Source: a virus (lineage: Duplodnaviria > Caudoviricetes). Taken from it: DNA of 58,301 nt. This document shows positions 12,713 to 35,809 of the stretch, in pieces. The notes below the pieces were generated by a model. It searched no databases, was not told the origin of the DNA, and was given only the letters and a program-made list of their open reading frames with translations. The stretch is from positions 1 through 58,301 of the IMG/VR virus record IMGVR_UViG_3300030101_000994; one strand, 5' to 3'. Position 1 is the stretch's first letter. Every line of letters starts with the position of its first letter. The position numbers and the translations under genes are program-made.

Positions 12713-15700
12713 ATGTCAGAGTTAAGTTCAGATTTTATTACTAGATTTCGCAGAGCGGTAGAAGAACGTAGATTCAATCCCGATGGGTTATCTAAAGAAG
12801 CTGCACAAGAAGTGGATTCATTATTTAGGTCTGGTGCTGTAGCAGGTTTTAACTCATTAGGAGACTATGTTGATGAAAGACAAGCAGCAAAAATAGCTCG
12901 TGCTACAGAATATGCAGAGGCGGCTGAACCTGGTCGTACTGCTATTAGAGAAGCTACAGGTATAGATGTAACTAGGCCCGGATTAGAGTTTGGTGGTGAA
13001 GTCATTGGTGCTACTTCAGCTTATTTAGCTAACAGAACTAATTTAAGTGAAGCTTATAAAAGATCAAAACTAAGTCCTGTAAAGATAGACTTTATCAACA
13101 GTAGTAAAAATTTAGGTCAAGTTTTAGAGGGAGCTAAATTAAAAGGCAAAGCAGGTTTAATAAAATCGGCAATAAGTATATTACCTAGAACAGCAAACTT
13201 TTTAAAAAGAGTATCTAATGTTTTTGTAGGCAGAGATTACTCCTCTACTGCTAAAAGAGTTGGAGTATATTCAGCATTATCTGGAGCAGGTGGTGCCGCC
13301 GCAGGTTCTATTACTTACGATACTATTAATATGCAAAGAGATTTCGCAACCAATGCGACTTTAGATCTTGGTAAAATATCAGAGAACGAATTACAAAAAC
13401 TACCAACAACTGAGCGTATGGAAGTCGCTGCTATAAACGCTTTTAAAAATTCATTACTGTGGACTGGTGGCACGAGTGCTGCTTTAACTGGCGTACTAAG
13501 ACTAGGCTCTTTTGCTGGTAAGGCTTTGACTGGTACAACTGGTAAAGAAGCTAGAACTTTAGCTTTGTCTGCAAGAAAACTTATGGGTAATGATGGTATA
13601 CCTTTAATCTTATTAGCTAATAATAAAAACACTTTTGGTGCTATTATTAGAGGATTCTTTACAGCAGGTGGTTTGATACCTGGAGTAGGTAGTGTTGGTG
13701 ACAATGCTAAAAGAAAATTGGTAGAACAAGGTATGGCAAAATTTACTTCAGAATTATCTCAAGCATATGGTTTTATAAGTCACAATGAAATATTTGGACA
13801 CACTCTCGGCCCAGTGTTACGAAAAAATTATGTAAAAAATATGAAATTAATTGACACCAAATTTGGACACACAAAAGAAGCTGCAGAGTTAATAGATCCA
13901 GATAACACTTTTAGAATGATTCCAACCACTAATTTAAAAACAGCTATGACTAGTTTTAGTGACACTATGGATGAAAACACATTAAAAACTATTAAAGAAA
14001 CTATCAGTCGTGGTGATCCTTTTATAGACCCAAACATAGTAAAGGCATTACCTAATAGAAAATTGTTAAAAACTTTAACTGATTTTTTAGTAGATGGAGA
14101 GAACATACCAAAATTTATGACACCAAAAGAGTATCAAGGTTTTATTACTATGTTAAATAATGTTATAAAGCAAAGTGGTAAAGGTGATGATTTACTATTG
14201 TATACAAAGGGTATGCGTGCAGCTATGGAGTCCGATTTAAATTCTGTAGCTAAGAAAAAATTTAGAAAAGATTTTGTAAGACTTGCACAAGAAAACCCTC
14301 AAATAAAAGCTAATTTAGATTCTATTGATTCAGGTAATATAGTAGAAGTAGCTGGCACAAAATTTATGAAGAGAAACGATGCTATGATAGGACCTGCATT
14401 ACCTAATACTTTTGTTGGCGAGGCAAGTGCTGTGAAGAAAGAATATTTAAAACATCTGATGGATGGTGTAGATAATTTTGGCAAAAGTTTAACTGCTTCA
14501 AATGATTTTATGAGCCGTATGCTACAACCTTATGAGAGAACTTTATCAAGAAAACTGGCAAGAACTGCTGATAAAAATTTATTTAGCACTTATAATTTAT
14601 TAGATATTGTTGGAGAAGGTGTACCTGCTGATCAAGTTTTTAAACATTTAGCAAGAGATGTTTTACAATCAGGTAGTAAAGGCACCATACAAGATTTTAA
14701 AATATTATTAGGAACAAATCAAAGAAAAGGAGCTGCCTTAGGTAGAGATTACTTTCAAAGATTAAAACAAAATCATATATTTGATGCTTTTTTTAATGCT
14801 TTTGAAAAACCAGAATTAATTAAAATGGGTGGTATAAAAAGCACTTCTGAAATATTTGATGAAGCTATGAAAAAAAGGTTATTTAGTAAAAAACTTTTTA
14901 AAGAGGGTATTCAAGATGCTACTGAAAAAAATGTAATCAACCCTTATGATTTAAATGCAGATGCTATATTAAGAGATAAAAAGTTTCTTGAAATTGATCA
15001 AAGAAAATTACAAGCTGATGTAGGACAGTTAGGAGATTTTAATGCTGATAAATTTATTAAAAATTTAAAACTAGATTCTAAAGAAGGCGTAGAAGCTTTT
15101 ATAGAAATGATAGCAGATGGCACAGGTAAAGCTGAGTATGCTATGGCAAAAAACTATGTTGAAAATAGTGTATTACCTTTTATACAATCTATGAAAAATA
15201 TATCTGATATGAGAATAGGCAGTGTGTCCTCTATGATTGCAAGACAGACTCAATTAGGAGGAGCTAGAGGGTTTCTTTTTGCAGGCCCTATGGTGGGTGC
15301 TTTAGCAGGTTCTACTTTAGCTGCTACTGGTTTACTAGAAGCTTTGACTATACCTTTAATGTTAAGAGGTATTGGCTATTTACTTACAAGACCTAAACTA
15401 GCTACCAAATTATTAGATGCTTATTTACCTGAGGAGTTGATAGCTAAAAAGTTTAAGACTGATGCTTTGGGTAGACCTACCACATTCAAAGCAACGGCAG
15501 CTGAAGGATTACCATCTAAACGTAGAGCGTTAGGTGCTATAATAAATTTAATTAATGATGAAACACAAGACTCTTTACAAATTAATTTAGACAAATTATC
15601 TGATCAAGAAATACAAGAAAAGCAACTAGAAATACGTGATGCAATAATGAACGCACCTACTGTCTTACCTGATGATACTTTTAGTCCTGAGTTTTTACCT

Positions 15701-16310: not shown

Positions 16311-16944
16311 TCCCGTCACTGCTGGAGCTGCTGTTCTTTCAGGAATTAAATTAGTTAAACAAAGTGTAGATTTTGTTAAACAGCAAATACAAACTTGCAA
16401 TGATATTGGTGATTTAGTAGGTCATATTGATAAAGCTATGATGGGTGAACAACAAGTTATCAAAGCTCGAGATTCAAAAAATGTTGACCATTTTGCTGTA
16501 GAGAACGTGGCCCAAGAAGTAATAGATGCTAAATTAGCTAGAGAACAATTAAATGAAATGAAAAATTTAATTAATTTACGCTTCGGCCCAGGCACATGGG
16601 AGTTTATTTTACAAGAAAGAAAAAAACGTATTGATGCAAAGAAACAAGCTATAAAAGAGGCAAAAGCAAAAAAGTTAAAACAACAAAAAGAAATGTACGA
16701 TATGATAAGGATGGGGTTTATAGTATTAGCAGTGATAAGTTTTATAGCAGTGGCTATAGGTATTACAGTAAAAATTGTTTTAGCTCATTCACTTTTAGAG
16801 GGAGATGAAAAATCATGTATGTTGTACGAGCCAAAATATTTTATGATATGTATGAATGAGGGCAGAGGATATGCAGATACAGAATTATATTTAGATTACA
16901 AAAAAATTAGAGATAACTGGATTGTCGAAGACGATGAAAAGTAG
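16303..16944 (+). CDS. Membrane protein with coiled coil
   Basis: Probable ATG start (MVDPVTAG); one TM helix near the C-terminus. Confidence 0.55.
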   Translation: MVDPVTAGAAVLSGIKLVKQSVDFVKQQIQTCNDIGDLVGHIDKAMMGEQQVIKARDSKNVDHFAVENVAQEVIDAKLAREQLNEMKNLINLRFGPGTWEFILQERKKRIDAKKQAIKEAKAKKLKQQKEMYDMIRMGFIVLAVISFIAVAIGITVKIVLAHSLLEGDEKSCMLYEPKYFMICMNEGRGYADTELYLDYKKIRDNWIVEDDEK

Positions 16945-27658: not shown

Positions 27659-27698
27659 TGTCAACATACCTTGACATTTCTAGGATATATCTTATATT
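27659..27698. promoter_or_regulatory. Back-to-back promoters with palindromic operator
   Basis: Plus strand TTGACA(27671)-16-TATATT containing TCTAGGATATATCTTATA; minus strand TTGACA at 27664. Confidence 0.65.
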
Positions 27699-27726
27699 TA
27701 ATATATAACTAAAAAGGAGATGAAAG

Positions 27727-27981
27727 ATGGGTAAAGTAAAACAACATTATACTATGGAAGCAGAGAAAAAGTTAGAAGCTTTGGCTACTATGTTAAAACA
27801 AAAACTAATTACCCCGGAGTATGTACGTAAACAAATTAAAGGTGATCAAGCCATACAACTGTTTGCTTTTAATTGTGATGAAGACGAAATGGATGAACAT
27901 ATAACCGAGTTTATCAAGTTCGTACAACAATCTGTTAGATTGGTAGTAGATAATAATAAGGAGGGTTTGATAGATGAGTAG
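27727..27981 (+). CDS. Hypothetical protein
   Basis: AAAGGAG RBS, MGKVKQ start. Confidence 0.7.
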   Translation: MGKVKQHYTMEAEKKLEALATMLKQKLITPEYVRKQIKGDQAIQLFAFNCDEDEMDEHITEFIKFVQQSVRLVVDNNKEGLIDE

Positions 27982-28270
27982 AAAAACTAGCGTAATGGAA
28001 AACCTTATGAAAGTACAACCTTCTTTTAACGCACCACGAAGCAAGTCTTTTGCTGAATGGTATGAGAAAGTAGATGAAGTGTTAGATTCACTTCAACTAA
28101 ATGATTATAGTTTTGGTCAGACTATACATAGATTGAAGGGACTAGGTGTGCCTACAGAGTTTGCAACTCAATGGGTACAAGACGAAAAGGCATACAGAGA
28201 AGATTGTGCGAAACTGTATAGCAAATGGAAGCAGGATGTAGGTTTAACTGATATAGTAGATGAGAGATAA
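27974..28270 (+). CDS. Hypothetical protein
   Basis: AAGGAG RBS; operon packing. Confidence 0.65.
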   Translation: MSRKTSVMENLMKVQPSFNAPRSKSFAEWYEKVDEVLDSLQLNDYSFGQTIHRLKGLGVPTEFATQWVQDEKAYREDCAKLYSKWKQDVGLTDIVDER

Positions 28271-28810: not shown

Positions 28811-29283
28811 TGTATTTTCCAGCACCGCACATTTTAGAAATTATAGGATTACAACTTTCAAGAGAAATATTATACACCACACACGTTACACCAGAGGAAC
28901 GATTATGGCGAGGAGTTTTACTAAATGCCATAGAAGATGTTTTAATAAAACACTCTGATCGTAAACATTCATTACAAAAAGGACAAGCCCACGATTGGAT
29001 TATAACCAATAGTGTTTGTTTTCAAAAAGTATGTGGCTGGGCATCACTAGACTCCGATCTCGTTTTAGAGGCATACATAAAAGCATTAGAGGAAGGCAAA
29101 GTAACTTTTACAGCTAGACAAATTATGTGGAATAAGTATGCAAGGTTTAGTAAAAAGATTCGCTCCATAGAAGAATGTAATATTAAAAGAAAATATAAAG
29201 GTGAGATTAAACGTTTCCGCACAGAAGTATTGGAAGCCCCTACAACTTACGTTACTACTTTATTTACTTCGGTGGTAGCATAA
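28807..29283 (+). CDS. Hypothetical protein (possible transcription regulator)
   Basis: PEERLWRGVLLNAIED...AHDWI...FQKVC; function not confirmed. Confidence 0.6.
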   Translation: MMYFPAPHILEIIGLQLSREILYTTHVTPEERLWRGVLLNAIEDVLIKHSDRKHSLQKGQAHDWIITNSVCFQKVCGWASLDSDLVLEAYIKALEEGKVTFTARQIMWNKYARFSKKIRSIEECNIKRKYKGEIKRFRTEVLEAPTTYVTTLFTSVVA

Positions 29284-29786
29284 TGCCACAAGTTAAAAAA
29301 GAACTACGCACCACGGATCACCTCAAGCCTAAGCAAAAAGAGTTTGTGCATATTTTAGTAAAAAATTGGGGACAAATTAGTAAAACCGCTGCATTACAGA
29401 AAGCAGGATACAAAACAAAGAACGAAGCAAGTGCCCGTGTTCTCGCTAGTAAACTAACCAATCCCAACCTCAACCCACATATATGTCGCTACCTGGAAGC
29501 AGAGCTATCCCGGGAACAAGAAAGATATGAGAAAGATAAGTTACGCCGCTACAAAACATTTGAACGATTACGAGATGGTGCTGAAGCCAAGGGACAGTAC
29601 ACAGGTGCAATCAACTCTGAATATCGTTCTGGTCAACTCGCTGGATTGTTTGTGGATAAAAAAGAAGTTACTCACAATACATTAGAAGGTATGAACAGAG
29701 AACAACTAGAAAAAAGATTAGAAGAATTAGAAAGAAAAATCGGAGAAGGTGTAAATATTATTGACATCACTCCTGAGAAAAAGTAA
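29283..29786 (+). CDS. terS: Terminase small subunit
   Basis: LKPKQKEFV...AALQKAGY...ASKL...NPHI HTH pattern; GQLAGLFVDKKEV oligomerisation segment. Confidence 0.7.
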   Translation: MPQVKKELRTTDHLKPKQKEFVHILVKNWGQISKTAALQKAGYKTKNEASARVLASKLTNPNLNPHICRYLEAELSREQERYEKDKLRRYKTFERLRDGAEAKGQYTGAINSEYRSGQLAGLFVDKKEVTHNTLEGMNREQLEKRLEELERKIGEGVNIIDITPEKK

Positions 29787-29789
29787 TAT
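29761..29789 (+). promoter_or_regulatory. Near-consensus sigma70 promoter with no plus-strand gene downstream
   Basis: TTGACA-17-TAATAT at the 3' end of terS. Confidence 0.7.
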
Positions 29790-29794
29790 ACATT

Positions 29795-29881
29795 ATCTCT
29801 TTTTAAGAGGTTTGAAAAAAAACGTCAACCTAGCACACTCCTTTTTAAATTCATATTTATTTCGTTTGTGCTAGGTTTTTT
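29795..29881 (+). ncRNA. Candidate anti-Shine-Dalgarno small RNA 1
   Basis: Own promoter; 11-bp stem AACCTAGCACA/TGTGCTAGGTT plus T-run; loop begins CTCCTTTTTA; 5' part complementary to leader 34561-34584. Confidence 0.55.
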
Positions 29882-30939
29882 AGTATGTGGGCTATGACAT
29901 CAACAGTCCAACCATTACCTATCATTTTATAGCGTTGTGTATCTGACACGCCTTGTGTGTAATTATCTGGTAAGGTCTGTAAGCGTTCACATTCTAATGG
30001 TGTAAGTTTTCTCCAATAGTTTGTATCTATATTTTCGCTGACAACCACATTATCTTTTTGTACTGTGGTTAAGGTATTTGTTTTACCATCAAAACGAAGT
30101 TCTAATTGTTGGTCTGTCAATCCCGCTACTTTCATTTTGTGATCCTGCCGCACCCCGTCTATTTTGTACCTACCACGAAACGCACCACAATATACTTTTG
30201 GTTCTCGGTGTCCTCCTTGCATAGTCGTCAATGTCGGTGCTTTGCCTTCTTTCGCATACACCCGTTTCACGCTATCGTGTCCTTTTATATCAGCATCTCC
30301 CACACGCATACAGCTGAATACCAACTGCCGTCTTGCCTTTTTAAAATAGTTTTCTACATTCCCACCTTTAAAATAGTGTGCATCAATGCAATATGATTTA
30401 TCACGATCCACGCACCCACATTCTAGTATGTCTTTTAGATAAATGCGTTTGTTTTCGGGCAAGAACACTCTCGGTATATTTGTCCAGTACAAGCGTTCTC
30501 GGTTTTGTGCTGACACTAACGCACTATTGATACATAAAGGTTGCACCCCTAATTCTGCCGTTATCACCCGTTCGTGTTCCTTTGCCATTCTGACATTTTC
30601 AAGCAAAAAGTATTTCGGTTTTGTTTCTTCCAACACTCGCATAAACTCCCAGAACAGTTCTCCCCGTTCGTCTTTGAACCCTTCTTGCCGTCCAGCAAAC
30701 GAGAATGACTGACACGGCGAACCACCCATCACCAAGTCTGGTTTGGCCAGACTCACGCCTCTTGAACCTAGTTTGGTAATGTCGCCTAGTTCTCTCGTGT
30801 TTGGATAATTCTTTTTTGCTATAGTGATTGCATACTTGTCAATTTCTGCTGCTTCATAGTGTTCAACGGGCAAATTAGCCCGTTGACACGCTACTTGACC
30901 AGAGGACATTCCGTCAAATAAAGATAATACTTTCATCAA
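29857..30939 (-). CDS. DNA (cytosine-5)-methyltransferase
   Basis: LSLFDG, GGSPCQ, ENV, QNRER, RKLTPLECERLQ, IGNGW. Confidence 0.95.
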   Translation of the reverse strand: MMKVLSLFDGMSSGQVACQRANLPVEHYEAAEIDKYAITIAKKNYPNTRELGDITKLGSRGVSLAKPDLVMGGSPCQSFSFAGRQEGFKDERGELFWEFMRVLEETKPKYFLLENVRMAKEHERVITAELGVQPLCINSALVSAQNRERLYWTNIPRVFLPENKRIYLKDILECGCVDRDKSYCIDAHYFKGGNVENYFKKARRQLVFSCMRVGDADIKGHDSVKRVYAKEGKAPTLTTMQGGHREPKVYCGAFRGRYKIDGVRQDHKMKVAGLTDQQLELRFDGKTNTLTTVQKDNVVVSENIDTNYWRKLTPLECERLQTLPDNYTQGVSDTQRYKMIGNGWTVDVIAHILKNLAQTK

Positions 30940-31157
30940 AATTTATGTCCTAATATTCTTTTAAACTCTTCCCACTTCCATTTTTCATATTCTTCATCTA
31001 TCTCGGATTCTATAATCTCTCGGAAATGATTTACAATCATGTCAAGCCCTTTACACATACCATTATACTCGGCTCTCATATGGCTGTCATTTGGTTCTCC
31101 CCAACTTTGTTTTATATCTTTTGCTGCGTTTTTTAATCTATAAAATTCAATTTGCAT
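30936..31157 (-). CDS. Early hypothetical protein
   Basis: GAGGAG RBS; operon packing. Confidence 0.65.
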   Translation of the reverse strand: MQIEFYRLKNAAKDIKQSWGEPNDSHMRAEYNGMCKGLDMIVNHFREIIESEIDEEYEKWKWEEFKRILGHKF

Positions 31158-31413
31158 TTTTACTCTCCTCTATTAAATGGTGAATACAATTTCCTTCAAC
31201 AGTAAATAAATACTCATTCACTTCACAATGCTCTTGTATTTCATAATCTTTAGCATCAGAAAAATATTGATATTTTGTGATAATATTCCCGTCCTTATCT
31301 TCACAATCATATTCTATCGGATATTCATCTAACCACCATATTACTTTTAATTTAGCTTTTGGATCTAATTCTTTATATTGATACACATTAATCATAGCTT
31401 TTGGCATTTTCAT
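31147..31413 (-). CDS. Early acidic hypothetical protein
   Basis: VYQYKELDPKAK...NEYLFTVEG; GAGGAG RBS. Confidence 0.65.
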   Translation of the reverse strand: MKMPKAMINVYQYKELDPKAKLKVIWWLDEYPIEYDCEDKDGNIITKYQYFSDAKDYEIQEHCEVNEYLFTVEGNCIHHLIEESKNAN

Positions 31414-31576
31414 TCTCCTCTATTATTTCTACTTCTGATTTCTTAAAACATAATTGGTCATCTAATGTTTCTGCATCTTCATCTTCTATGACAACTTCCG
31501 TATCGTGTTCAACGATACACTTTCCATATATCTCTTGGTCTATTACTTTTATTCTTTTGTTAAGATAATGCTTCAT
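31388..31576 (-). CDS. Early acidic hypothetical protein
   Basis: GGAG RBS; small beta-rich ORF. Confidence 0.6.
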   Translation of the reverse strand: MKHYLNKRIKVIDQEIYGKCIVEHDTEVVIEDEDAETLDDQLCFKKSEVEIIEENENAKSYD

Positions 31577-31793
31577 TTTTTAACTCCATTGTTATAGGAT
31601 TAATATCTAGGAATCCTCCTCCATTACCTTCTGCATCTTGACACACTACAACTTGATATTGTTTTCCTTCATACTCGGTAATCAAAATTGGAAAAGGTTC
31701 TATGTCTTCACAATTATCATCTACATAAAATCTCATAATTTTATGACCAAGTAATTGTTTATAGTGGTTTATATATTTTTTAGTTATTTCCAT
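31560..31793 (-). CDS. Early hypothetical protein
   Basis: The AAAAGGAG RBS places the start at MEITKK; QDAEGNGGGFL motif. Confidence 0.65.
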   Translation of the reverse strand: MEITKKYINHYKQLLGHKIMRFYVDDNCEDIEPFPILITEYEGKQYQVVVCQDAEGNGGGFLDINPITMELKNEALS

Positions 31794-32064
31794 TCTTGCA
31801 CTCCTTTTCTTGTCCATCTAGTATTTCTGTAACATGATAGTTAATAATCTGATGTAATAAATGTGTCGCTATCAATTCATTCGGTGCAGTATCAAAAGCT
31901 AACTCGCATACAAAATGTTGCAAAGCCTTTACCATATTCGGTACTGATACTTGCTCTTGACTATCCTCACACAAATCTAATAACTTTTCACGCACCAATG
32001 CCATCTGCTGCACATCTCTCAATGGTGTTACTTTTTTTCTTTTAACTGTCTGTCTTTTAGCCAT
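31780..32064 (-). CDS. Early hypothetical protein
   Basis: AAGGAG RBS; FDTAPNE motif. Confidence 0.65.
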   Translation of the reverse strand: MAKRQTVKRKKVTPLRDVQQMALVREKLLDLCEDSQEQVSVPNMVKALQHFVCELAFDTAPNELIATHLLHQIINYHVTEILDGQEKECKNGNN

Positions 32065-32267
32065 ATTATTTCTCCTTGTTTTTTAGGTTTGATTATTAAA
32101 TCCGTCTTTTGTTGTCTTACTGCATCTTCTACTTTTTTCCAGTGTTGCCTTGCCCAGAGTGTTACATCTGGGCTAAAGCTACTTCTTAACTTTCTGACTC
32201 GCTCAAGTCTTAATTCAGCGACTATCTTTTTCATTTTCTTTTCGTCTATATCCATAAAGCTACACAT
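32028..32267 (-). CDS. Early hypothetical protein
   Basis: GAGGAG RBS; WARQHW. Confidence 0.55.
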   Translation of the reverse strand: MCSFMDIDEKKMKKIVAELRLERVRKLRSSFSPDVTLWARQHWKKVEDAVRQQKTDLIIKPKKQGEIIWLKDRQLKEKK

Positions 32268-32412
32268 CTTTATTCTCCTCTGATTCTGGTATTGTAACTC
32301 TTTGGTTAATTATATCTTGTATCAATTCAAGTACAGCTTTTAACTCATCTGTACTTAATTGAAAGAAATTTTCTTTTATTTCTGTTTGTAATTTTTTATG
32401 TTCAATCATCAT
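32260..32412 (-). CDS. Early hypothetical protein (50 aa, not in ORF track)
   Basis: MMIEHKKLQTEIKENFFQLSTDELKAVLELIQDIINQRVTIPESEENKDV; AAGGAG RBS. Confidence 0.6.
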   Translation of the reverse strand: MMIEHKKLQTEIKENFFQLSTDELKAVLELIQDIINQRVTIPESEENKDV

Positions 32413-32644
32413 TCAACTCCTTGTTAATTATGTCTAGGTCTGCCATACATTGTTCTACACTAGCTAATATGTCTTCAAATATTTCTTGTCCTTCCTCTGT
32501 ATAACTTGAGTTTCCATCTCTGTTATAAGTTACATACCTCTCATATTCTTTGCCATATTTTATCTGCATCAAATCATCTGCCCACTCGCAAGTGAAAGCG
32601 ATATACTCATCTGAACTTATTTTAATAGTTTTATTATCTGACAT
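32402..32644 (-). CDS. Early acidic hypothetical protein
   Basis: GAGGAG RBS; YTEEGQEIFE motif. Confidence 0.65.
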   Translation of the reverse strand: MSDNKTIKISSDEYIAFTCEWADDLMQIKYGKEYERYVTYNRDGNSSYTEEGQEIFEDILASVEQCMADLDIINKELNDD

Positions 32645-32975
32645 TTTTTAAATATCCTCCTCTCATCATAAACTTCTGTGGTTCGATATACTTGAACCAA
32701 TCAATCATGCTAGGAATAAATCCCAAGTCTTCTATAATATGTCTTTCAGCAATTAGTCTGACGGGGACTTTTCTTCCGTCTGAATTAGTAATGGTAGTGC
32801 CAAACTTTTCTTCACAAGCAAAGCAACCTTCTGCGTGGTGTCTTAACGCTCTATGTCTGAAGTCTGGCATTATCTTTTTACTCTCATCAAACCAATCGTG
32901 AATAGGTTGGTAGTCCTCTGGACTACCTCCCCATTTTTTTACAGATGATACTGCGTGATGGTAACAGTTAGCCAT
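32634..32975 (-). CDS. DUF6915-like His-rich protein
   Basis: HHAVSSVKKWGG..DYQPIHDWFDESK..RHRALRHH..IAERHIIEDLG. Confidence 0.7.
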   Translation of the reverse strand: MANCYHHAVSSVKKWGGSPEDYQPIHDWFDESKKIMPDFRHRALRHHAEGCFACEEKFGTTITNSDGRKVPVRLIAERHIIEDLGFIPSMIDWFKYIEPQKFMMRGGYLKNVR

Positions 32976-33195
32976 TTTTTACCTCCTTGAATGTTTTACC
33001 AAGACCATTCTCCCACGCCTCTGGGATAATCCAATTAGTCATATTTAATAACTCACAGAATTTTGGAAACAGTTCTTTTTCATAATCAGAATCATCTGCT
33101 AGTCGTCTAGATAACTCCTTTATAAACTCTCTAAATTCGTTTGTCAGTTCTATGTCTTTATCTTTGTATGCCATATTATATCTCCTCCACTTCAC
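32968..33195 (-). CDS. Early hypothetical protein
   Basis: The GGAGGAG RBS suggests the true start is MAYKDK (about 33174). Confidence 0.55.
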   Translation of the reverse strand: MKWRRYNMAYKDKDIELTNEFREFIKELSRRLADDSDYEKELFPKFCELLNMTNWIIPEAWENGLGKTFKEVKNG

Positions 33196-33694
33196 TATGT
33201 TCTACATAAGAAACATAATCGTGTAATATTGTACCTTTAACTACATCAAAAATAATATTGCCACTTTGACCTTCATTGATTTCCCAACCTCTGTGAAATG
33301 CCTCAAGATAATCATAAGCCATCTCTTCAATATAATCTTTTAAATCCATTGGATCGGTTGTATATTTATAAGTGTGGTCTGTATGACTCCAATACTTTCT
33401 TTCTCCAATGTCTACTATATGCTTTTCAGTAAGATTGATAGTATTTTTACCTACATAAAAGGTTGCATCTTCTAATGAACCATCATCTCCAGAACCACTA
33501 TAATATATTTCAACTCTATCTATTTTCATGTCTTTTAGTATCTTCATTATTTGTGGTTTAACACTTTCTTTAAAGCCCTTCTTTTTTCTTTCTTGTCTGG
33601 CATAAAACTCTTCGTGCCATTTCTTATTTTCTTCGTCTGTCTGATGAATACTAATACTACCATCATTTTCTTTTTTGAACTCTGTCATTGTCAT
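33176..33694 (-). CDS. DUF6878-like protein, first gene of the leftward early operon
   Basis: IYYSGSGDDG and GWEINEGQSG motifs; AAGGAG RBS. Confidence 0.65.
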   Translation of the reverse strand: MTMTEFKKENDGSISIHQTDEENKKWHEEFYARQERKKKGFKESVKPQIMKILKDMKIDRVEIYYSGSGDDGSLEDATFYVGKNTINLTEKHIVDIGERKYWSHTDHTYKYTTDPMDLKDYIEEMAYDYLEAFHRGWEINEGQSGNIIFDVVKGTILHDYVSYVEHSEVEEI

Positions 33695-33710
33695 CTCCTT
33701 GTTAAGTTAA

Positions 33711-33748
33711 TATAAGATATATCTTATAGGTATCTATATTATTGTCAA
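33711..33748 (-). promoter_or_regulatory. Leftward early promoter overlapped by a perfect 18-bp palindrome
   Basis: Minus strand TTGACA-16-TAAGAT; TATAAGATATATCTTATA at 33711-33728. Confidence 0.7.
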
Positions 33749-33976: not shown

Positions 33977-34414
33977 ATGAAGTTAACTGAATCAAAAATC
34001 TGGTCTTACATTAACAAGATTCAAAAGCAGAAAAAAAATTGGCATTTTATAAGGATAGAATCCCATACAGTTAATGGAATCCCTGATATTAATGGTGTTA
34101 TCAATGGGCGTGAGTACTGGATAGAATTGAAGTGCAATCGTGGTAACAATATTGGATTAAGTAAGTATCAACTGTTATGGCATAGCAAAAGAATACAATC
34201 TGGAGGCAAATGTTTTATTCTGCATGCGACCGAGAAGCACGAGCATATAGAAATTCTCGAAGTGCGAGATTCCCGTTCCCGTTCTCGTTTCCCGTTTCCC
34301 GTTCGAATTGGTCTAGTGTCGTACCATCAGGAGCCGGGCAGCCCAGTGCTGCGTCCCGGGTCCCGGGTCCGGGAGGGGTTAGAAAGAGCCGTTGTTCAAA
34401 TGTCCCGTTTGTAG
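33977..34414 (+). CDS. PD-(D/E)xK nuclease (VRR-NUC / Holliday junction resolvase-like)
   Basis: ESKIW, RIES, GIPD, WIELK, LSKYQ..W; the C-terminus runs through repeat DNA. Confidence 0.75.
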   Translation: MKLTESKIWSYINKIQKQKKNWHFIRIESHTVNGIPDINGVINGREYWIELKCNRGNNIGLSKYQLLWHSKRIQSGGKCFILHATEKHEHIEILEVRDSRSRSRFPFPVRIGLVSYHQEPGSPVLRPGSRVREGLERAVVQMSRL

Positions 34415-34528
34415 TTCCCGTTTCCCGTTCTCGTTCGGCGTGTTCTAGTTGGAGGCGTAGATCCATCTGGGAGGCTGCACGGCAGCACACCGCAGCACTG
34501 GAACAAGACTTACATAGAAAAAAAATTT

Positions 34529-34556
34529 TTGCATATATATAAAAGCGTGATATAAT
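34529..34556 (+). promoter_or_regulatory. Strong early promoter
   Basis: A/T-tract UP-like element, then TTGCAT-16-TATAAT with extended -10 TGn. Confidence 0.75.
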
Positions 34557-34588
34557 AAAATTTTTCAAACTTAAAAAGAGGTAAAACA

Positions 34589-34939
34589 ATGACATATAAA
34601 ACTTGTAAAGAAAGAATCCAACAAGAATATCAAGACAGACTTGAACAGATAAGAACGGAAGAAGAACCCCCTTTCTTGTCTTTTGATTATGTAGAGCCGA
34701 ACACCTTCGAAGGTCAAGAGGTCGGTTATTATCGTTACCAGATGAGTTGGGGAGGTCCTTCTGATGAATTTAGAATGTACGACAATAGCGATAAAATTCA
34801 ATATTGGTTTTTAGATTGGTTTGACGGAGCATTTATAGAGGTTGATGACATTGAAGTTGTTGACTTGGTTAACTCTTACATTGAAAGCGTCAAAGAAAAA
34901 AAATTAAATCCCTTAAATAAAATTTTTAATTATACTTGA
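34589..34939 (+). CDS. Early acidic protein (WGGP motif)
   Basis: AAGAGG RBS; YQMSWGGPSDEFR...DWFDGA. Confidence 0.75.
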   Translation: MTYKTCKERIQQEYQDRLEQIRTEEEPPFLSFDYVEPNTFEGQEVGYYRYQMSWGGPSDEFRMYDNSDKIQYWFLDWFDGAFIEVDDIEVVDLVNSYIESVKEKKLNPLNKIFNYT

Positions 34940-34952
34940 GCCCGTTCTCGTT

Positions 34953-34990
34953 TCCCGTTCCCGTTTTCGGGAACGGGATTGTTTTGTTTT
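34953..34990 (+). terminator. Intrinsic terminator built from repeat units
   Basis: TCCCGTTCCCG-TTTT-CGGGAACGGGA (11-bp stem), then a T-rich tail. Confidence 0.65.
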
Positions 34991-35060
34991 GGTCCTTAGT
35001 TACCGGGCTGGCAGCACACCGGGTCAAGTTTTTGATTCTCCTACATTTGGGAAAAAGTAG

Positions 35061-35088
35061 TTGCAAAATATCCCATATATAATACAAT
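35061..35088 (+). promoter_or_regulatory. Early promoter
   Basis: TTGCAA-16-TACAAT. Confidence 0.55.
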
Positions 35089-35120
35089 AGTTCTTTTAAA
35101 CCAATAAAGGAGAATGAAAG

Positions 35121-35294
35121 ATGAATAAAGATGAATTTATAAAAGGGCTGATGAAGTACGGCAGAGACAAAGGGTTTATACAAGATAAGCCTAAAGAGGG
35201 TAGAACATATACTCTTGTGGGTGCAGGTAACTGTATTGCAGGTGGCAATACTTGGGCTGAATCAGAAGTACATAAAAAGAAAGAAGACAAATGA
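35121..35294 (+). CDS. Early small protein (57 aa, not in ORF track)
   Basis: AAAGGAG RBS; MNKDEFIKGLMKYGRDKGFIQDKPKEGRTYTLVGAGNCIAGGNTWAESEVHKKKEDK. Confidence 0.7.
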   Translation: MNKDEFIKGLMKYGRDKGFIQDKPKEGRTYTLVGAGNCIAGGNTWAESEVHKKKEDK

Positions 35295-35305
35295 GGGGGA
35301 AGTCC

Positions 35306-35340
35306 ACGGGAAACGCAGTTGCGTTTCCCGTTTCTCGTTC
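35306..35340 (+). terminator. Hairpin/terminator built from repeat units
   Basis: ACGGGAAACGC-AGTT-GCGTTTCCCGT (11-bp stem) right after the stop codon. Confidence 0.55.
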
Positions 35341-35430
35341 GAATTCCCGTTGGGGCGTTCGGCGTTATCAGTTGGAGCTGAGCAGCCAGTTGCAGCGGCC
35401 CGGGCGTGATGGTTTGGAGGCTATCGTGAT

Positions 35431-35544
35431 ATGATTCAGTTAGCAGTTTTCGTGGGCATTTTGTGCGTCCTTTGGTTCTTTACTAGATGGCTAGTGCTGT
35501 CTGTGGGTATCTTGGTCTTGACATACCTGATTTTTTTCTGTTAA
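35431..35544 (+). CDS. Small hydrophobic membrane protein (37 aa, not in ORF track)
   Basis: GGAGG RBS; MIQLAVFVGILCVLWFFTRWLVLSVGILVLTYLIFFC. Confidence 0.6.
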   Translation: MIQLAVFVGILCVLWFFTRWLVLSVGILVLTYLIFFC

Positions 35545-35738
35545 AAATGCCGTTTCTCGTTTCAACTCTCGTTGGTGCGTTCGGCGTTTCTAGTTTCTGG
35601 TCGTGCTGCGATCCGCTGCGGCCCCGGAAGCCCGTTTCTCGTTTCAACTCCCGTTGGTGCGTTCGGCGTTTCTAGTTTCTGGTTCCAGTTTTTACCTGGG
35701 CCCAGGAGCAGCAGAAAATAAATATTTATGTGCGGACA

Positions 35739-35809
35739 TATAAGATGTGTCTTATAGGATATTCCTATAACAGATATAGGTTGCATCTATAAGATATATC
35801 TTATATACT
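35739..35809 (+). promoter_or_regulatory. Early promoter with three operator-like palindromes
   Basis: TTGCAT(35781)-17-TATACT; perfect palindrome at 35788-35805; variants at 35739-35756 and 35753-35769. Confidence 0.75.

Follow-up and report, generated by a model that had tools for sequence, protein, structure and literature searches.

The window analysed here is a stretch of viral DNA of 58,301 nt (58.3 kb; IMG/VR record IMGVR_UViG_3300030101_000994), which was judged 98% complete and has a G+C content of 34.5%. Its large terminase shares 75.5% identity with the counterpart in Pelagibacter phage HTVC023P and, judging by its sequence, the phage is a marine pelagiphage of the HTVC023P type. 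Gene calls were made with a home-made caller and gave about 87 predicted proteins, 36 of which were scanned for domains and families; no RNA polymerase or sigma factor was found among these 36, and no tRNAs were found in the window. The subject of the analysis is a segment between the ends of two convergent operons (29787-29881), together with its complementarity to the starts of genes 34589 and 35121 (hereafter T1 and T2), which are small, separately promoted and located just past an inverted block of genes.

Genes, terminator and promoter-like motif at the convergent junction

The plus-strand operon, which starts at promoter 27671, ends with an open reading frame (ORF) of 167 aa resembling the small subunit of terminase (TerS), located at 29283-29786. 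This TerS-like ORF matched phrog_51 ('terminase small subunit') with an E-value of 2.4e-7 and is 57% identical to gp21 of HTVC023P, annotated as TerS; against Pfam Terminase_2 it scored 20.3 bits, under the cut-off of 26.1. On the opposite strand, a gene for a C5 cytosine DNA methyltransferase (29857-30939, minus strand; PF00145, E-value 4.7e-49; phrog_116), referred to below as the methylase, is the last gene of a minus-strand block (29857-33694) whose promoter is at 33748 (minus strand). The TerS stop codon (29784-29786) and the methylase stop codon (29857-29859) thus leave a gap of 70 nt between the ends of the two operons, and the segment 29787-29881 is their 3′ untranslated tail and shared bidirectional intrinsic terminator, not the free-standing RNA gene proposed in an earlier, sequence-only reading of this DNA. 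Part of the TerS operon (27990-28138) is also identical to a 152-nt marine metatranscriptome contig, for which carry-over of DNA into the library is possible.

Relatives were collected by scanning IMG/VR with the TerS-like protein, whereby 105 were confirmed and 80 loci were kept. The convergent arrangement of TerS and methylase appeared in only a few of these 80 loci and in one metagenome contig (L245) reached through a query with the methylase, while HTVC023P itself has plus-strand genes after TerS. The window is taken as lineage A, and a metagenome scaffold (L243) has the same sequence over the region examined and hence does not count as an independent sample. The TerS proteins of lineages B (L002 and L003), C (L007), D (L004-L006) and E (L245) are 93%, 84%, 85% and 83% identical to that of lineage A, respectively. 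A megablast of phage records with the window sequence gave 0 matches, and pattern scans of IMG/VR with the hairpin arm and with the end of the T1 leader returned mostly unrelated contigs, the only relatives among them being loci already known.

The hairpin of the terminator spans 29827-29877 on both strands. As the sequence-only reading had described, a perfect 11-bp stem (29827-29837/29867-29877) encloses a loop of 29 nt (29838-29866) and is followed on the plus strand by a run of six T (29876-29881). Upstream of the hairpin, a run of eight A on the plus strand (29815-29822) corresponds to a U8 tract on the minus strand, 4 nt past the stem. The methylase stop codon falls within the loop, and the loop and the 3′ arm hold the last codons of that gene. 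The plus-strand fold had a minimum free energy of −22.7 kcal/mol (z = −4.95), with none of 200 shuffles being as stable, and on the minus strand 5 of 200 shuffles were as stable (z = −2.46). Moreover, the hairpin of lineage B is homologous to that of lineage A, with one compensatory change from C-G to U-A and a loop of 6 nt, and the hairpins that occupy this position in lineages C, D and E are unrelated to them. With its stem between convergent stop codons, a U-tract on both strands and a structure kept while the sequence varies, the hairpin is assigned with high confidence to a bidirectional terminator. Its loop is outside the short range of 3-8 nt, and the other terminators of this phage have loops of 4 nt. 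No Rfam family matched the locus at E≤1, nor the whole window at the gathering score.

The sequence-only reading had also placed here a near-consensus promoter pointing into DNA with no plus-strand gene. The motif is present on the plus strand (TTGACA-17-TAATAT, 29761-29789, with TTGACA at 29761-29766 and TAATAT at 29784-29789; scan score of 10 out of 12), but it is inside the TerS-like ORF, embedded in its final codons (I-D-I...K-K-stop), so that the −10 element includes the TerS stop codon. Conservation of the I-D-I codons, together with the stop codon, would also account for the motif, and the region from 24 to 38 kb showed no enrichment of promoter-like sites, with 48 found against 51.9 expected. 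The stricter pattern TTGACA-N16-18-TAnnnT occurred at only six sites on both strands of the 58 kb, two of them being evident operon promoters. Since the motif is rare in the genome, is kept as TTGACA-17-TAAnnT in all five lineages (A-E) with the convergent arrangement and makes use of GAC, the minor Asp codon (22% of Asp codons), an internal promoter at the end of TerS is plausible and would be a candidate source of a transcript of about 85 nt. Whether or not this promoter fires, the segment is transcribed as the 3′ untranslated region (3′ UTR) of the operon.

Complementarity to the starts of T1 and T2

T1 (34589-34939, plus strand) encodes a protein of 116 aa that belongs to phrog_36747, a family with no assigned function, and has 682 relatives. 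Its AlphaFold 2 (AF2) model has a predicted local distance difference test (pLDDT) score of 90, and neither a Pfam domain nor a PDB fold match at E≤0.001 was found for it. The gene has its own terminator (34953-34978) and a promoter, TTTGCA-17-TATAAT (34528-34556, plus strand), with an extended −10 TG at 34548-34549, which is conserved in lineage B and in two further contigs (L089 and L258). The 5′ UTR is about 25 nt long, and the target site within it (34561-34584, plus strand) includes the Shine-Dalgarno (SD) sequence AAGAGG (34576-34581). On the plus strand of the convergent junction, the segment 29793-29819 (module 1) is complementary to the entire T1 5′ UTR and SD: against the complement of 34561-34584, 23 of the 24 positions match and the pairing includes a single G-U pair and a bulge of 3 nt, as had already been seen in the sequence-only reading. 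The segment also contains a small hairpin of its own, formed by CTCTT (29797-29801) and AAGAG (29805-29809). The duplex energy of −23.1 kcal/mol was reached by 2 of 200 composition-matched shuffles, and the Watson-Crick alignment score of 19.0 was reached against any start region by 6 of 4,000 natural windows. By this score the T1 leader was the first of 87 start regions for module 1. A stretch similar to the T1 leader, CAAACTTTTTAAAAAGAG, is carried by a coding site at 13185.

T2 (35121-35294, plus strand) encodes a protein of 57 aa (MNKDEFIKGLMKYGRDKGF...) conserved in lineages A-D, and the promoter scan placed a promoter-like site, TTGCAA-16-TACAAT, upstream of it (35061-35088, plus strand). 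A second segment of the junction (29840-29866, plus strand; module 2), which is part of the 29-nt loop, is complementary to positions −4 to +26 of T2, that is, to a target site at 35117-35146 (plus strand) comprising the start codon and the first 8-9 codons. The alignment has 25 matches, two mismatches and two small gaps, with a Watson-Crick score of 18.5. None of 39,734 natural windows reached this score on the T2 target and 2 of 3,000 reached it against any start region, while the energy of the duplex was reached by 37 of 2,000 shuffles.

Ranking and co-variation across lineages

A uniform test was applied in which the whole putative RNA was compared with all start regions (−35 to +30) of the same lineage by the Watson-Crick alignment score. 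In lineage A (87 start regions), T1 ranked first (19.0) and T2 second (18.5), the next best score being 14.5, and in lineage B (53 start regions) the same two genes came first and second (18.5 and 14.5, respectively), followed by a score of 13.5. T2 ranked first in lineage C (20.0; 54 start regions), where T1 was eighth, and also in lineage D (18.0; 45 start regions), which has no T1. Thus, the start region most complementary to the RNA was that of T1 or T2 in four lineages. In lineage D, this best complement of the 3′ UTR belongs to a gene of 55 aa in the equivalent position. Furthermore, when 9,800 windows across the genome of lineage C were ranked by duplex energy with its 3′ UTR, the start region of the T2 homologue came first. 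The 3′ UTR of lineage E holds a T2-like antisense stretch, its own T2 being outside the contig examined. In the distant relatives G006-G009, TerS and T1 stand in another gene order, and complementarity was not seen by eye (unscored).

Changes in lineage B affected the 3′ UTR and the T1 leader alike: T was replaced by AGT, and a change from G to A in the RNA was matched by one from C to T in the leader, so that the co-variation across relatives proposed as a check in the sequence-only reading was observed for this target. The central bulge is still different, with CTC in the RNA, nothing in the leader of lineage A and AA in that of lineage B. The cognate pairs of lineages A and B scored 19.0 and 18.5, while the cross-lineage pairs scored 11.5 and 13.0. 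When independent mutation was simulated at the observed amounts, a score of at least 18.5 was kept in 4, 12 and 11 of 20,000 runs. Moreover, an energy matrix of four by four lineages was built from the 3′ UTR segments and the cognate target leaders (T1 for lineages A, B and C, and T2 for lineage D), and the cognate pairs of A, B, C and D, with −23.1, −17.7, −16.6 and −14.9 kcal/mol, respectively, were each the best of their row and column. Overall, complementarity to start regions exceeded chance for both T1 and T2, and co-variation was found for T1 in lineages A and B only, not for T2. For reference, at the four-fold synonymous sites of TerS, lineage A shares 66% identity with lineage B and only 42-54% with C, D and E. 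The antisense copies matched their own targets at about 77-96% over the aligned stretches, a figure inflated by the choice of local alignments. As to an excess of wobble pairs, the mismatches counted by eye were too few to judge.

A possible antisense regulator of T1 and T2

Whatever its origin, transcription of the segment necessarily yields a sequence antisense to T1 and T2. That the plus-strand RNA is an antisense regulator, situated in the 3′ UTR and terminator and repressing both genes, is a reading of the sequences on which our judgement is evenly balanced. The RNA would be made either as the 3′ UTR of the operon or as the transcript of about 85 nt from the promoter-like motif in the TerS codons. 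Module 1 (29793-29819) would then pair with the whole short 5′ UTR and SD of T1, and module 2 (29840-29866), in the loop of the terminator, with T2 at its start codon and the codons that follow, so that ribosome binding would be blocked on both; duplexes of 24-27 bp might also invite RNase III. The shut-off of T1 and T2 would thereby be tied to the expression of the TerS operon. We infer the accumulation of the RNA, the firing of the internal promoter, the pairing within the cell and repression as its effect.

Several results weigh against such a regulator. With regard to T1, an energy of −23.1 kcal/mol against some start region was reached by 93 of 600 natural 37-nt windows, and two coding sites, 16777-16820 (−25.0 kcal/mol) and 13185-13236 (−23.0 kcal/mol), pair with 29790-29826 as well as T1 does. 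RNAduplex ignores accessibility, and module 1 is partly enclosed in its small hairpin. In lineage C the fit to T1 is weak, with rank 7-8 of 54, and was equalled by 513 of 19,839 natural windows and 42 of 1,000 shuffles. When the full-length RNA was ranked by energy, T1 was 16th and T2 17th of 87, although a ranking by energy only is uninformative in this AT-rich genome, since the G+C-rich hairpin arms dominate the scores. Regarding T2, the fit is not specific to the lineage: the RNA of lineage C scored 22.5 with the T2 of lineage A, 21.0 with that of B and 20.0 with its own, while that of lineage D scored 18.5 with the T2 of B and 18.0 with its own. Furthermore, T2 and the target in lineage D were recognized post hoc, from the ranks, and the lineages number only four to five and are kin to one another. 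A loop of 29 nt is poor for an intrinsic terminator, and the terminator scan, which covers only loops of 3-8 nt, misses the hairpin. Finally, two metatranscriptome runs (one sample, searched as contigs) had nothing over 29760-29890, which is uninformative on expression; on the region they gave only the 152-nt contig at 27990-28138 and two short spurious pieces.

Alternative explanations

The main rival, which we consider rather unlikely, is that the segment is a scar of recombination, namely a truncated and inverted copy of a promoter-leader-start module of the T1/T2 type, left beside TerS by the insertion or inversion of the minus-strand block (from the methylase to DUF6878). The segment would then be transcribed only passively, as part of the 3′ UTR, with no regulatory role under selection, and the hairpin would be a plain terminator. 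Read on the minus strand, the copies do look like gene starts, with a leader, an ATG or TTG and four to eight decayed codons, ending where TerS ends, and the copies of lineages C, D and E stay colinear with T2 over positions of about −25 to +21. The lack of lineage specificity in the T2 fit would also be expected if a conserved sequence had long ago been copied in inverted orientation, and the copy of lineage C keeps an MNK-type start that its own T2 has lost. Inverted pairs of leader modules occur elsewhere in the window (27686-27723/33691-33728 and 33681-33712/35818-35849). Moreover, and to the further detriment of a regulator, promoter-leader modules do act as junctions in relatives, one module after TerS preceding at least five different genes in ten loci (L017-L026). 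What a scar explains less well is the joint change of the 3′ UTR and the T1 leader in lineages A and B, as these concerted changes flank a centre that was not homogenized, and thus two tiny conversion tracts or selection would be needed. In addition, the modules of lineage A are colinear with no single gene, the copy of the T1 leader coming first and that of the T2 start lying inside the loop. Between lineages, synonymous sites have diverged more than the copies, and the antisense copies stayed while the adjacent hairpins were wholly turned over.

Inverted repeats acting as DNA, either as recombinase sites bordering an invertible segment of 4.7 kb or as sites for a DNA-binding protein, are a very improbable alternative to pairing RNAs. 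The repeats are indeed inverted, 24-27 bp long, placed exactly at both borders of the minus-strand block and changed together in lineage B. However, the findings differ from a Hin/Gin-type inversion, as no recombinase family was found among the ORFs of the block that were scanned and a single orientation was present in all the junction contigs (left junction: the window, L243, L002 and L003; right junction: the window, L243, L089, L087, L088 and L258). The spacer difference of 0-3 nt between the copies would be ill tolerated by a protein site, the arms are non-palindromic, and the repeat sequences vary among lineages despite homologous genes in the block.

Hardly any weight is given to the version of the sequence-only reading itself, in which a free-standing, multi-target small RNA (sRNA) would use anti-SD sequences in its loop (CTCCTTTTTA and CACTCCTTTT) to repress genes 27727 and 31793 besides 34589. 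The two 10-nt complementarities exist, CTCCTTTTTA matching the complement of 27710-27719 and CACTCCTTTT that of the SD preceding the ATG at 31793, and among 92 start regions (−35 to +12) gene 31793 formed the best duplex with the loop (−17.7 kcal/mol). As targets, however, both genes are at chance level: this energy was equalled by 52 of 200 shuffled loops, 27727 ranked ninth of 92 and the motif AAGGAG is present in 12 of the 92 start regions. The comparison with shuffled controls came out well for the T1 segment by energy, as given above, and not for the loop with the named ribosome-binding sites. Furthermore, the loop sequence aimed at 27727 and 31793 is missing in the closest relative, lineage B, and the loop as a whole fits T2 far better. 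More than one target is plausible, and it is T2 that the loop matches significantly, not the two additional genes that had been named. Equally little credence is given to a plain terminator whose complementarities arose by chance in AT-rich DNA, for while the energy-based controls were unremarkable in this genome of 34.5% G+C, this reading is disfavoured by the nulls of the Watson-Crick score, by the same two genes topping the ranks in four lineages and by the simulation of independent mutation.

Promoter modules and repeats in the surrounding region

A palindromic motif with the core AAGATATATCTTAT overlaps four promoter-like sites (27681-27698, 33710-33729, 35738-35757 and 35787-35806), among which are both operon promoters, 27671 (plus strand) and 33748 (minus strand). 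In lineage C the promoters of T1 and T2 also carry the motif, which resembles a shared operator of a regulator belonging to the phage or its host. The promoter-leader regions of genes 27727 (plus strand), 33688 (minus strand) and 35842 (plus strand) are homologous modules in opposite orientations, being 74-78% complementary over 32-38 nt. In the loci L017-L026, TerS is followed by a conserved module made up of an A-rich run, a TTGCAT-17-TATTAT promoter, a hairpin and ACAACGGAGAAAAAAATG, after which the genes differ (at least five in the ten loci), a pattern suggesting that cassettes are shuffled at promoter-leader modules. In HTVC023P, about three tandem copies of a unit of about 33 nt (aatcttgagaatacataccgaaaattttttgca) are located downstream of TerS and before gp22 (L082, 7175-7275).

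Short repeats of the CCCGTT/CTCGTT type are dense around T1 and T2 (34277-35685), the T1 terminator (34953-34978) being built from them, and hairpins of CTCGTT repeats follow T2 in lineages C and D. In the same region, two direct repeats of 52 nt (35550-35601 and 35632-35683) are 98% alike. Possible roles of the repeats at 34277-35685 are those of iterons, of a pac site or of binding sites for proteins. Moreover, the end of T1 with its terminator (34900-34984) gave a sub-threshold match to CyaR/RyeE in Rfam (34.2 bits, under the gathering score of 47; E-value of 0.0027), which is most likely a terminator look-alike.

Relation to known systems and significance

The bacterial sRNAs DapZ and MicL are derived from 3′ UTRs and have their promoter inside the upstream coding region. 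The junction described here resembles them in having a promoter-like motif among the final codons of the gene upstream, in sharing the terminator of that gene and in its complementarity to the ribosome-binding region of a distant gene. It differs from them in belonging to a phage, in its complementarity of 24-27 nt rather than a short seed, in the module within the loop and in a terminator that also serves a convergent gene, and it is a candidate identified from sequence. Like bidirectional Rho-independent terminators, it has a G+C-containing stem between converging stop codons, bordered by an A-run on one side and a T-run on the other, with a compensatory change in one lineage and replacement of the sequence in others; unlike them, it has a 29-nt loop holding the stop codon of one gene and an antisense module.

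Among phage RNAs, c4 of P1/P7 acts within its own operon and sar of P22 is a cis-antisense RNA. The segment at the TerS junction is likewise a phage antisense RNA candidate that would mask the translation start of another phage gene, but its targets are in separate transcription units across an inverted block, and no Rfam homology was found. The promoter early stem-loop elements (PeSLs) of T4-type phages are mobile promoter/stem-loop cassettes mediating gene shuffling. Here too, conserved promoter-leader modules border variable gene cassettes, unlike PeSLs in that one copy is inverted, truncated and placed in a 3′ UTR, and is consequently transcribed as antisense to its paralogues. Phage antisense repressors, with c4 and sar both listed among the references of a review (PMC12197685), and sRNAs derived from 3′ UTRs are already known kinds, and no new category is claimed.

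Gene regulation in HTVC023P-type pelagiphages is little known. The infection transcriptome of HTVC027P is the only published one of the group and, as stated in passages of that report (PMC12753301), its early genes are all of unknown function and its temporal classes are mosaic. A literature search turned up no report of an RNA-based regulatory circuit in a SAR11 phage, and a search on Hfq in Pelagibacter yielded no usable result. Tentatively, and with slightly less than even confidence, we propose that HTVC023P-type pelagiphages have a riboregulator in the 3′ UTR and terminator loop of the TerS operon, which would have been born of inverted copies of the starts of its targets, would silence two small, separately promoted genes across the inverted block and would have undergone compensatory evolution with them. 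If the segment were only a scar, it would still mark the recombination junctions of the methylase cassette. If the proposal is true, two transcription units of these phages would be linked in a concrete way at the post-transcriptional level, and this would be the first RNA-based regulatory circuit that we know to be reported in a SAR11 phage. It would also mean that trans-acting antisense regulators can arise by inverted duplication of the promoter-leader module of their target during cassette shuffling.

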